Below are positions 25,422-28,200 of a DNA stretch of 39,073 nt, piece after piece. This DNA comes from a virus. Made by a program: the position numbers and the translations under genes. Positions within the stretch are counted from its first letter, which is position 1. Each line of letters opens with the position of its first letter. The stretch is from the IMG/VR virus record IMGVR_UViG_3300037502_001802; one strand, given 5' to 3'. The notes below the pieces were generated by a model that saw only the letters and a list, made by a program, of their open reading frames with translations, was not told where the DNA came from and ran no database searches.

Positions 25422-28200
25422 CTACGAAGAATTTATAAAAACAAAACAGTTCGAAGACGTTAAAAGCGGTTTTGAGCCCGGCGCACTGAACCCGAACCTG
25501 TTCGAGTTCCAAGAAGCCATTACCCGATGGGCACTGCGCCGTGGCCGCGCTGCGATATTTGCCAATACCGGACTAGGCAAAACCCTGATGCAAATGGCAT
25601 GGGCCGATGAGGTATGCGAGCATACAGGCGGGCGCGTTCTCGTTGTTGCGCCTTTGGCTGTCGCTAAGCAATCCGTAAACGAGGCGGCAAAGTTTGGCAT
25701 TACAGCGCAGTACGTCCGTGAGCAGCCTTCTGGCAAGTTTTCCGAAATCCTGGTCACTAACTATGAAATGCTTGAAAAGTTCGACCTATCGACGTTTGAG
25801 GGCGTTGTTCTGGATGAATCCAGCATCATCAAGAACCGTGACGGCAAGACGCGCAAAGCAATCATTGAGTCCTGCCAGCGCGTGCCGTATCGCTTGAGCT
25901 GCACCGCAACCCCGAGCCCAAACGATTACATGGAGCTGGGTAACCAATCTGAGTTTTTGGGCGTCATGGGTATGAATGAAATGCTGGCCATGTTCTTCAC
26001 TCACGATGGTGGAGATACAAGCAAGTGGCGACTAAAGGGCCATGGTGAGCGCAAGTTCTGGGAGTGGATGGCAACTTGGGCTATCACCATCACAAAGCCT
26101 TCTGATCTTGGATTCAGCGACGAGGGCTATGATTTACCGCCGCTGAATATGCATGAGCACATGGTCAAGTCGCCAGAATCTGAAACCGGCCTATTTGTGG
26201 ATATTGCCCGCACGCTTAACGAGCGCCGCCAGGCGAAAAAAGACACACTGGCCGAGCGAGTCGCCAAGGTTGCCGATCTGTGCAATGACAATGATGATCA
26301 GTGGCTGGTTTGGTGCCACACCAATGATGAATCGGCCATGCTCGCAAAAGCCATTGATGGGGCAGTTGAGGTTAAGGGGAGCGATACTGCTGATCACAAA
26401 GAGAGGGCGATAGAGTCATTCATAAATTACGGAAAACAATGTTTTTGTGATAAACTGGCAGAAAATAAGCCGGAGAATTCACAATGCCAGAAAAAACTTA
26501 CCAGCAAAAATACTACGAGCGTAACCGAGAAAAGCGAAAGGCGGAGTCAGCCGAATACCAGCGCAGAAACAGAGAAAAGCGCCGAGAGTACATGCGAGAG
26601 TACGCAAAGCGAAACCGAGACAAGTTCAGCCGAACACCTGAGCAGCAAGCAGAGTACAACGAGCGTAGAAAAGAGCGGTACGCCAACTGCGAGCGTGAGC
26701 GCGCAAAGGCCAGAAAAGCAGCTGCAGACTGGCAACAAAGAAATCCAGAAAAGCGGTTTGCCCAAAGGCTTAGAAAATACGGAATCACCCCTGACCAATA
26801 CTATGCAATGCTCGACGAGCAAGGCGGGTGCTGCGCAATCTGCGGAAGCTCTGACCCAAAAGACGGAAGAACAGAGCGCATGTTCGTCGACCACTGCCAC
26901 GAAACAGGCAGGGTCAGAGGATTGCTTTGCTCGTCCTGCAATCTCGGAATCGGAAAATTTGAGGACAAGCCAGAACTGCTCATGTCAGCAGCAAAATACC
27001 TCGAAAGCCAGAGTTCTGATTAGTAAGCCGTCTATTTTCGGCTTTGGCTTAAATCTACAGATGTGCCAAAACATGGCATTTGTCGGACTGGATGACAGTT
27101 ATGAGCAGATGTATCAAGCCATTCGACGCTGCTGGCGTTTCGGGCAGACTAAGCCAGTAAACGTGCACATTGTGACCGCTGAAGCATTGGGCGCAATAAA
27201 GGCTAATATCGAGAGAAAGGAGAAACAGATGGAGCAAATGCAATTAAGCATGGTCGATCATATGCGCGACGCCATGCAAAAAGAAATCAAAGGCGCGGCA
27301 ATGGAGAAAGATGACTACAATCGCCAGGTTTATGAGGGCCGCGACTTCACCATTCATAACGCGGACTGCGTGCACCTGGCCCGCGAGATTGAATCGGACA
27401 GCGTAGGCTATACAATTTTCAGTCCGCCGTTTGCCAGCCTGTATACGTACAGCAACAGCGACTATGATATGGGCAACGCGAAAGACGACGACCAGTTCTA
27501 TGCGCAGTTTAAATACTTGGTAGCAGAAATGTACCGCATCACAAAGCCGGGCCGGCTGCTTTCATTCCACTGTATGAACTTGCCGACTAGTAAGCAGAAT
27601 GATGGCTATATCGGTATTCGAGACTTCCGTGGCGACCTTATCAAGATGTTTCAGGATGAAGGTTGGATTTATCACTCAGAGGTTTGCATCTGGAAAGACC
27701 CTGTAACCGCCATGCAGCGCACCAAGGCGCTCGGGCTTCTGCATAAGACTATCCGTAAGGACAGTGCCATGAGCCGTCAGGGCATTCCTGATTATCTGGT
27801 AACGATGCGAAAGCCTGGCGAAAACAACGATCCGATCAGCCACACGCACGAAGAATTTCCAGTTCAGTTGTGGCAGCGCTACGCCAGCCCGGTATGGATG
27901 GACATCAACCCCAGCCGCACACTGAATTTTCGTGATGGTCGCGACGAGGACGACGAGCGTCACATTTGCCCGTTGCAGTTGGACGTGATCGAGCGAGGCC
28001 TTGATCTGTGGAGCAAGCCCGGGGATCTGGTGTTCAGCCCGTTCACCGGAATAGGGTCCGAGGGATACTGCGCCGTTAAAAAAGGGCGCCGGTTTATCGG
28101 GTCTGAACTGAAGTCAAGCTATTACGAATTGGCCATCCGCAATATCGAAGAAGCCTATAACACCACCATGGACATGTTCTCAACAGAGGAAACCTCATGA
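25411..28200 (+). CDS. SNF2-family helicase fused to a beta-class N4-C/N6-A DNA methyltransferase, with an internal ~195-codon insertion
   Basis: SNF2 motifs ANTGLGKT (25561-25584), VVLDESS (25804-25824), TATPSPN, RVLISKPSIFGFGLNLQ and QAIRRCWRFGQ. MTase motif IV FSPPF (27418-27432) precedes motif I FSPFTGIGSEG (28033-28065). Confidence 0.8.
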   Translation: MTDNYEEFIKTKQFEDVKSGFEPGALNPNLFEFQEAITRWALRRGRAAIFANTGLGKTLMQMAWADEVCEHTGGRVLVVAPLAVAKQSVNEAAKFGITAQYVREQPSGKFSEILVTNYEMLEKFDLSTFEGVVLDESSIIKNRDGKTRKAIIESCQRVPYRLSCTATPSPNDYMELGNQSEFLGVMGMNEMLAMFFTHDGGDTSKWRLKGHGERKFWEWMATWAITITKPSDLGFSDEGYDLPPLNMHEHMVKSPESETGLFVDIARTLNERRQAKKDTLAERVAKVADLCNDNDDQWLVWCHTNDESAMLAKAIDGAVEVKGSDTADHKERAIESFINYGKQCFCDKLAENKPENSQCQKKLTSKNTTSVTEKSERRSQPNTSAETEKSAESTCESTQSETETSSAEHLSSKQSTTSVEKSGTPTASVSAQRPEKQLQTGNKEIQKSGLPKGLENTESPLTNTMQCSTSKAGAAQSAEALTQKTEEQSACSSTTATKQAGSEDCFARPAISESENLRTSQNCSCQQQNTSKARVLISKPSIFGFGLNLQMCQNMAFVGLDDSYEQMYQAIRRCWRFGQTKPVNVHIVTAEALGAIKANIERKEKQMEQMQLSMVDHMRDAMQKEIKGAAMEKDDYNRQVYEGRDFTIHNADCVHLAREIESDSVGYTIFSPPFASLYTYSNSDYDMGNAKDDDQFYAQFKYLVAEMYRITKPGRLLSFHCMNLPTSKQNDGYIGIRDFRGDLIKMFQDEGWIYHSEVCIWKDPVTAMQRTKALGLLHKTIRKDSAMSRQGIPDYLVTMRKPGENNDPISHTHEEFPVQLWQRYASPVWMDINPSRTLNFRDGRDEDDERHICPLQLDVIERGLDLWSKPGDLVFSPFTGIGSEGYCAVKKGRRFIGSELKSSYYELAIRNIEEAYNTTMDMFSTEETS
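26425..27023 (+). mobile_element. Putative homing-endonuclease insertion (HEG plus its RBS) inside the helicase C-lobe coding sequence
   Basis: Sequence between host FINYG (26419-26433) and RVLISKP (27010 onward). It begins with an AT-rich ~50 nt carrying GGAGA and contains only the HNH ORF. Confidence 0.6.
26484..27023 (+). CDS. HNH endonuclease of the recombination endonuclease VII type (free-standing homing-endonuclease-like)
   Basis: GGCCAICG...[27 protein letters not shown] signature. N-terminal R/K/E/Y/N-rich repeats are typical of phage HNH proteins. GGAGA at 26472-26476, 7 nt upstream of the ATG. Confidence 0.85.
   Translation: [179 protein letters not shown]

Follow-up and report, generated by a model that had tools for sequence, protein, structure and literature searches.

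How can a homing endonuclease gene (HEG) lie within a conserved gene, in another reading frame, and still leave the frame of that gene open from end to end? The question is raised by IMG/VR record IMGVR_UViG_3300037502_001802, a 39,073-nucleotide stretch of viral DNA (the whole of it hereafter called the window). Here an uninterrupted open reading frame (ORF) for a superfamily 2 (SF2; SNF2-like) helicase fused to an N6/N4 DNA methylase, hereafter the host gene, encloses a complete ORF for an Endonuclease VII-type HNH nuclease in a shifted frame (Table 1). The comparisons described below make it probable that the nested gene belongs to a homing cassette which is tolerated by translational read-through, the host enzyme carrying the insert as a loop; this mechanism is well supported by comparative evidence.

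The limits of the insert were determined by comparison with homologues of the host gene, collected through a search of 5.8 billion proteins. Thousands of insert-free homologues of ~735 aa, up to 93% identical to the window protein (P0003), lack its residues ~339-533. By direct reading, the FINYG codons occupy positions 26419-26433 and the RVLIS codons 27010-27024; the distance from the F codon to the R codon is 588 nt in the window and 15 nt in the nearest empty allele (contig L004, which reads E G F S A S S V R V L I S at the insertion site), so that the insertion adds a net 573 nt (191 codons). The insert recurs at an identical position in two other contigs (L001 and L002), whose host frames are likewise open, and it is polymorphic for presence or absence at one site among close homologues (these carriers versus P0003 and L004). 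The nested ORF measures 540 nt against 588 nt of insert, its stop lying 12-14 nt beyond the 3' junction, and 62 nt of insert fall outside it. This stop (TAG, 27021-27023) is set within the host codons for L-I-S and is supplied by an ATT codon for Ile, where the empty allele has ATC. Across the HEG, the third frame contains nine stops and the host frame none. An initial annotation of the window, made from its letters, had proposed the same host ORF and nested 179-aa ORF, which the ORF listing reproduces, and had correctly placed FINYG, RVLIS, the ribosome-binding site (RBS; GGAG) and the TAG within L-I-S. Its forecast that alignment with insertion-free homologues would locate the empty site in the F..G..RVLIS loop held as well. 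Its figure of ~580-600 bp for the insertion is corrected here to the net 573 nt, nearly all of it HEG, and its two third-frame stops (TAG 26771, TGA 26852) were an undercount.

The Endonuclease VII-type HNH signature that the initial annotation had read out of frame is confirmed by Pfam: the nested ORF matches PF02945 over residues 95-175 with 94.8 bits (cut-off 23.6; E = 3e-27). The catalytic D/H/H/N and the four zinc cysteines (C117, C120, D136, H137, H139, C149, C152 and N153) are invariant in 11 diverged HEGs, and a HEG profile searched against PDB matched Hpy99I (4.5e-12) and T4 endonuclease VII (7e-9), with the catalytic and zinc residues aligned to both. Substitutions among three copies of the cassette (window, L001 and L002) were compared in both frames, as the initial annotation had proposed. 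The ratio of nonsynonymous to synonymous substitution (dN/dS) was 0.09-0.17 in the nuclease frame and 2.0-2.6 in the host frame, and 50 of the 70 substitutions fell at third positions of nuclease-frame codons. These ratios indicate that the HEG is kept functional by purifying selection on its own frame, and nuclease activity is predicted. A tblastn search with the HEG set detected one copy in the window and no other.

T4 endonuclease VII (gp49), the T7-like gp13.5-type genes and Hpy99I share the PF02945 beta-beta-alpha-Me nuclease fold and motifs with the window HEG. These are free-standing genes, resolvases or restriction enzymes, whereas the window HEG lies inside another gene and, unlike them, has an additional R/K/E-rich N-terminal half of ~90 aa. 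Free-standing Endonuclease VII genes of many phages are 47-56% identical to the window HEG over its C-terminal half. A match to the 'internal virion protein B' of Yersinia phage WX2 proved to be a mis-annotated free-standing Endonuclease VII gene.

The cassette and its host gene differ in history. When the window is compared with L002, identity is 82-98% in the insert and 85-90% in the 60 bp flanking it on each side, against 38-78% in most 60-nt bins of the host gene outside the insert and its immediate flanks. Host synonymous sites are saturated between carriers (proportion of synonymous differences, pS, 0.75-0.85; window versus L002, 0.80), while synonymous divergence of the HEG (dS) is just 0.19-0.63. 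Against the empty allele L004, identity is complete (100%) over 26131-26367 (237 bp), falls to 62-77% in 26368-26427 and 26968-27087, and then recovers to ~90%. Around motif V, carriers read SIFGFGLNLQ and empty alleles SICGFGMNWQ. The flanks look co-converted, this pattern of identity being the one expected from homing with co-conversion of 60-80 bp on either side, and the identities indicate that the cassette is mobile and its history incongruent with that of the host gene.

For the window alone, an open host frame arose with a probability of 0.25 when synonymous codons were permuted and of 0.035 when codons were resampled with host usage. The initial annotation had considered the open frame improbable but less so in the purine-rich half of the HEG; the latter suspicion was right, and the improbability of the whole is weak when the window is taken by itself. 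The significance of the open frame therefore comes from relatives and not from the window. These were found by tblastn with the HEG, rather than the host, as query, so that open and broken hosts were equally findable, and the best 80 loci of each scan (from 557 and 351 tblastn-positive loci) were analyzed. In each scan the matches of high identity over most of the HEG lay within the same helicase family, at two sites: site A, that of the window, between F..G and RVLIS, and site B, in the linker just before the first RecA2 strand (PWLVWCH). The host frame is open in ~25 of the helicase-embedded relatives and not open in four (L007, L072, L106 and L109). Over 22 diverged lineages, synonymous-codon permutation gave an expectation of 54.6 host-frame stops, and none was observed; the figure for the third frame was 151. 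Under the permutation null, ~4.7 of the 22 lineages would be open by chance, and this null is conservative because it reuses codons already filtered by selection. HEGs just 45-50% identical to one another all leave the host frame open, and at HEG identities of 45-55% synonymous sites are fully randomized despite shared ancestry. Site-B elements mostly have the phase host = HEG+2, in which the probability of an open frame is 0-0.03 for each element. Such stop avoidance in the host frame across the clade indicates that the open frame is maintained by selection. Five loci with long alternative-frame ORFs over HEG matches but no helicase match in the locus (L137, L153, L157, L170 and L173, from high-GC actinobacterial genomes, the GC content being judged from their names) were set aside as likely chance open frames.

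In a crude UPGMA (unweighted pair group method with arithmetic mean) tree, the relative frame agrees better with the sub-clade of the HEG than with the site of insertion. The phase host = HEG+1 occurs in every site-A element and in some at site B (L018, L023 and L108), and host = HEG+2 in the other site-B elements. This distribution suggests that cassettes moved between the sites, keeping the same open frame.

An AlphaFold2 model of the window protein was built with 89 homologues. The helicase and the methylase are confidently folded, and residues 347-529, between a helix (327-338) and a strand (535-538), have a predicted local distance difference test score (pLDDT) of ~27 and no secondary structure. 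The position of this segment, predicted to be disordered, places the insert in a RecA2 surface loop; site B is the inter-lobe linker. CxC...CxC motifs at the two ends of the loop were considered as a zinc clamp and rejected: the 3' motif is a by-product of HEG residues (LLM, A[MV]YLR), and the motifs are not conserved in position.

Candidate expression signals lie just upstream of the nuclease ORF, where the sequence TGnTAAACT(GGCAGC) is the most conserved cassette DNA at both insertion sites. This sequence occurs at two distinct distances from the ATG. Six cassettes lack a Shine-Dalgarno (SD) sequence (L009, L018, L022, L023, L024 and L029), and in these the hexamer ends 6-7 nt before the ATG. 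In nine others, including the window, L001 and L002, the motif ends 26-33 nt before the ATG and a GGAG-like sequence stands at the usual distance in all nine; L003 was counted in this SD-led class only after its start had been re-assigned to a downstream ATG. L022 reads TTGACA-N17-TAAATT-N6-ATG. We hypothesize that TGnTAAACT is a putative extended -10 promoter that would give a leaderless or an SD-led mRNA. The local RNA fold around the RBS is a small hairpin no better than that of shuffled sequence (z = -1.05), and there is no evidence of RBS sequestration of the mobE/I-TevI type.

Translational read-through of a homing cassette would account for these results as follows. A ~575-bp cassette consisting of a -10-like motif, an SD sequence and an Endonuclease VII-type HNH HEG would have homed into a RecA2 surface loop of a phage helicase-methylase, between the F..G turn and the RVLIS strand. 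The endonuclease would be translated from its own start codon in the shifted frame and would cut or nick insert-free alleles during co-infection, and recombinational repair would copy the cassette together with 60-80 bp of its flanks. Since the cassette has no host-frame stop, ribosomes would read straight through it, yielding one full-length helicase-methylase with a ~190-aa disordered loop and no splicing of RNA or protein. The loop sequence would be free to drift, the absence of stops being its sole constraint. Three parts of this account are inferred: that the empty site is cleaved, that the loop-bearing protein functions, and that TGnTAAACT acts as a promoter. The initial annotation had offered two alternatives; stop avoidance in relatives and the AlphaFold2 model favor the first, a helicase with a ~190-aa disordered loop dual-coded with the HEG, and no support was found for the second, some unrecognized splicing or recoding.

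Removal of the insert from the mRNA by an unrecognized self-splicing intron (very small, or overlapping the HEG) or by other RNA processing, with the open frame incidental, is highly improbable. HNH HEGs are, as is generally known, typical cargo of phage group I introns (PMC2988022), and atypical phage introns exist (BAKA, as cited in PMC11855218). A search of 25400-28300 against Rfam at E up to 10, however, returned no intron family and just three chance snoRNA-like matches, and the RNA fold given above is not significant. The HEG fills the insert but for the 62 nt already mentioned and has its stop in host codons, which agrees with the earlier remark that there is no room for a ribozyme. A spliced element, moreover, has no reason to avoid host-frame stops, of which the 22 lineages have 0 against the 54.6 expected, and all inserts keep the frame. 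An atypical intein, in which the host-frame peptide would splice itself out of the protein and carry an out-of-frame HEG, as has been reported for the cyanobacterial dnaX intein, is hardly credible, even though inteins with out-of-frame HEGs exist (bioRxiv 10.64898/2026.09.14.751524; L105, with a DUF559 ORF) and this gene family does host inteins (Pacc40 gp60). The host-frame insert peptide has no Pfam match and no Hint/intein match, while the identical search detected the intein of L105 and so provided a positive control. The residue that follows the insert (+1) is R, not C/S/T, and boundary residues are not conserved among the cassettes of relatives. The insert is also predicted to be fully disordered, and its host-frame sequence drifts with dN/dS > 2. 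With the nuclease out of frame as well, the earlier judgment that this is not an intein stands. Intron HNH HEGs (I-HmuI, I-TevIII) and intein-borne HEGs, that of dnaX included, share with the window element homing into conserved sites of conserved genes and co-conversion of flanks; those elements restore the host product by RNA or protein splicing, whereas no splicing element is detectable in the window.

Two further explanations leave the insert in the message and dispense with the loop-bearing enzyme. The N-lobe and the C-lobe/methylase could be separate polypeptides made by internal initiation, as in Aeh1 nrdA/mobE, with the loop irrelevant or a minor product. HEG-split genes are known to work (PMC2988022), and a relative at site B, L007 3139-5935 (IMGVR_UViG_2833429700_000004), has this form: its N-lobe ORF (3139-4005) stops just inside a HEG (3992-4459) 53% identical to that of the window, its C-lobe ORF (4438-4959) begins at a separate ATG that overlaps the end of the HEG, and the methylase is a separate ORF. 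The host frames of L106 and L109 are interrupted too. The window itself has neither a host-frame stop nor a start codon placed before RVLIS, and initiation at the next in-frame ATG past the insert (LNLQM) would delete motif V; selection against stops along the whole insert would also go unexplained if the N-terminal product may end anywhere. For the window, we consider genes-in-pieces unlikely. It is quite improbable, too, that the insertion crippled or inactivated a dispensable gene and that the open frame is a chance result of purine-rich HEG composition and recent arrival. Both window probabilities (0.25 and 0.035) and the intrinsically stop-poor phase HEG+1 would allow it, and such methylases are non-essential according to Arsenault et al. 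(PMC11855218). The HEG-seeded surveys, by contrast, returned ~25 open and four interrupted hosts where ~5 open were expected, and elements in the phase HEG+2 are open at probabilities of 0-0.03 each; even HEGs only 45-50% identical all keep the frame. The carrier host genes also retain all motifs under strong purifying selection, the proportion of nonsynonymous differences (pN) being 0.04-0.25 against a pS of 0.5-0.85.

Several points weigh against translational read-through as the explanation. The window by itself proves little, its phase (host = HEG+1) being stop-poor from the amino-acid composition of the HEG, with a probability of an open frame of 0.1-0.8 per lineage. The 22 lineages share ancestry, and their permutation P-values are not strictly independent or multipliable. 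The low pLDDT of the loop may partly reflect a shallow alignment over the insert (3 of the 89 sequences), and the split version in L007 shows that site B does not strictly demand an unbroken polypeptide. A generic sigma-70 -35/-10 scan of 26200-27200 called 0 promoters and one chance-level minus-strand terminator; because it calls no promoter, the case for one is solely the conservation of the motif. Read-through translation and the function of the loop-bearing enzyme are, finally, deductions from comparing sequences.

Members of the clade occur in P22-like and Gordonia phages, a Mesorhizobium genome and metagenome-assembled genome (MAG) contigs assigned to Planctomycetota, candidate-phyla-radiation bacteria and Methanosaeta. 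Cultured open-frame carriers include the Gordonia phages Malisha (gp71; L018 1835-3694, OP434458.1 42853-44712) and Squiddly (gp64; MN096370.1 41190-43031). Both genes are annotated solely as 'DNA helicase', and the nested ORFs are unannotated in both records. In Malisha the nested Endonuclease VII-type ORF is out of frame and encodes 176 aa (L018 2746-3279), with its ATG 6 nt past TGCTAAACT and no SD sequence. Another open-frame relative is carried by cultured Mesorhizobium sp. Root102, on a contig that is probably a prophage. Among the four relatives without an open host frame, L072 481-2614 (Ga0315273_10216698) has the N-lobe fused in frame to the HEG in a 479-aa stop-free stretch and the C-lobe in another frame, open from inside the HEG; it could be a real fusion variant or an assembly frameshift error. 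In L105 (Deltaproteobacteria MAG JAUYMQ010000598.1; host ORF 879-3797), a hidden Endonuclease VII HEG at site A is accompanied by a second insertion, in the N-lobe (1747-2379), which gives Hint/intein matches in the host frame and holds an out-of-frame 210-aa ORF with DUF559 (restriction-endonuclease-like). From these matches, the second insertion is an intein with an out-of-frame endonuclease.

Out-of-frame HNH-like ORFs within uninterrupted host frames were described by Arsenault, Gosselin & Gogarten 2025 (Genes 16:178, PMC11855218) in ShiLan gp65 and Pacc40 gp60, with no intron or intein features, a predicted loop and purely computational evidence. The window has the features of these cases: an insert relative to empty homologues, an open host frame, an out-of-frame ORF filling the insert, and no intron or intein features. 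Pacc40 gp60, from a mycobacteriophage, belongs to the same host family as the window gene (BLASTP 37% over the N-lobe, E 1e-41; the C-lobe and methylase align too) and has the same arrangement, an endonuclease-like ORF in another frame filling the insert within an uninterrupted host frame. Its insert lies at a third site, in the N-lobe after RPSDI (~window residue 233), and its nuclease is a 159-aa HNH/AP2-like ORF with no Pfam match, whereas the window HEG is an Endonuclease_7 member; Pacc40 is an actinobacteriophage and the window a P22-like podovirus. By the Pfam match alone, the window HEG appears to be of a different nuclease lineage from that of Pacc40, and what unites the out-of-frame hidden-HNH kind is its arrangement rather than shared ancestry. 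Pacc40 gp60 (L021 3102-7127, NC_011287) carries an intein in addition to its published hidden HNH-like ORF (3866-4345), and its RefSeq name, 'anaerobic ribonucleoside reductase large subunit', is probably due to that intein.

In the ShiLan domain (mycobacteriophage ShiLan gp65 methylase; PMC11855218; Gosselin et al. 2023, PMC9957025), an HNH ORF of ~195 aa lies out of frame, its start 18 bp from the beginning of the insert and its stop within the final 4 nt. Like the window element, this domain has an open host frame, a predicted loop, a patchy homing-like distribution and evidence that is purely computational. It differs in its stand-alone methylase host, its I-HmuI-like HNH with zinc fingers, and its GTG start with no RBS found, in place of the ATG start with GGAG and the conserved upstream -10-like motif of the window. 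The mobE gene in Aeh1 nrdA and mobA in T4 gene 60/39 (Edgell, Gibb & Belfort 2010, PMC2988022) are likewise free-standing HNH HEGs placed in a conserved region of a functional gene without an intron or intein; the frames of their hosts, however, are broken into two ORFs whose products reassemble, whereas that of the window is continuous. L007 represents the mobE-type split solution, with a relative of the window HEG in the same helicase family.

The window, which spans an entire 39,073-bp JGI contig, is probably a near-complete genome of a P22-like podovirus. It also encodes a P22-like coat, portal, injectosome translocase and stabilization protein. A terminase, a primase, a sliding clamp (28197-29180), an SMC-like ATPase and another SF2 helicase are present as well. 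Its host ORF matches the Pfam families DEAD/ResIII/Helicase_C and N6_N4_Mtase. A megablast search of the host gene against 50,697 phage records gave no match, so the window phage has no close cultured relative among them. An apparent 1.1-kb insertion in Alteromonas phage XX1924 was rejected as a permuted gene order, with methylase, clamp and helicase as separate genes. Elsewhere in the window, a TTG-started ORF of 283 aa (7642-8493, + strand) lies antisense to, and is nearly co-extensive with, a 406-aa injectosome-translocase-like gene (7246-8466, - strand), and this may be chance.

Table 1. Features of the host gene and the nested cassette, in window coordinates
Feature	Coordinates	Strand	Details
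Host gene, SF2 (SNF2-like) helicase fused to N6/N4 DNA methylase	25411..28200	+	929 aa, uninterrupted ORF
Upstream co-conversion tract (candidate), host coding sequence travelling with the cassette	26368..26421	+	Identity to L004 75%, to L002 up to 90%
Inserted segment	26422..27009	+	588 nt between host F and R codons; host-frame reading of 196 codons, S/T/E/Q/K-rich, stop-free
TGATAAACT, extended -10-like motif, putative HEG promoter	26448..26456	+	Motif conservation across cassettes
GGAG Shine-Dalgarno sequence	26472..26475	+	8 nt before HEG ATG; conserved in L001, L002 and other SD-led cassettes
Homing endonuclease gene, Endonuclease VII-type HNH	26484..27023	+	179 aa, ATG start; frame +2 relative to host; Pfam PF02945
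HNH/zinc core (CAICG...VDHCH...C..CN...GKF), HEG residues 117-159	26832..26960	+	Invariant residues in 11 diverged HEGs
HEG 3' end, last 14 nt, overlapping native host codons R-V-L-I-S	27010..27023	+	Sequence reading and comparison with empty allele
Downstream co-conversion tract (candidate), over helicase motif V	27010..27087	+	Identity to L004 62-77%, ~90% beyond; to L002 85-98%, beyond 38-78% (mostly ~60%)
N6_N4 DNA methylase domain, host residues 669-909	27415..28137	+	Pfam PF01555, 2.2e-13

Having been published in 2025, the arrangement itself would no longer surprise a specialist. New here are the Endonuclease VII-type nuclease, two further insertion sites, a quantitative case for selection on the open frame, the coexistence of read-through and split-gene solutions for the same element, a candidate expression module, and a spread well beyond actinobacteriophages. 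We give an even chance to a broader proposition: that these cassettes form an old, widespread Endonuclease VII-type lineage specialized for splicing-free life in coding sequence, with a minimal promoter (TGnTAAACT), a leaderless or SD-led ATG and a choice of codons that keeps one alternative frame free of stops, hopping between sites A and B while the host stays a single chain. Introns, inteins or gene splitting are the usual explanations for HEGs in genes; the window and its ~25 relatives support a recently proposed fourth route, in which ribosomes pass through the parasite and render it as a disordered loop. The clade includes cultured phages suited to testing read-through, leaderless expression and homing, and automated annotation misses such nested genes, as in Malisha gp71 and Squiddly gp64. 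The element would illustrate natural dual coding in which the sole demand on one frame is to stay open, the codon usage of the parasite being under a measurable constraint against host-frame stops. If the broader proposition is true, translational read-through would stand beside introns and inteins as a third general strategy for homing endonucleases that live within genes.

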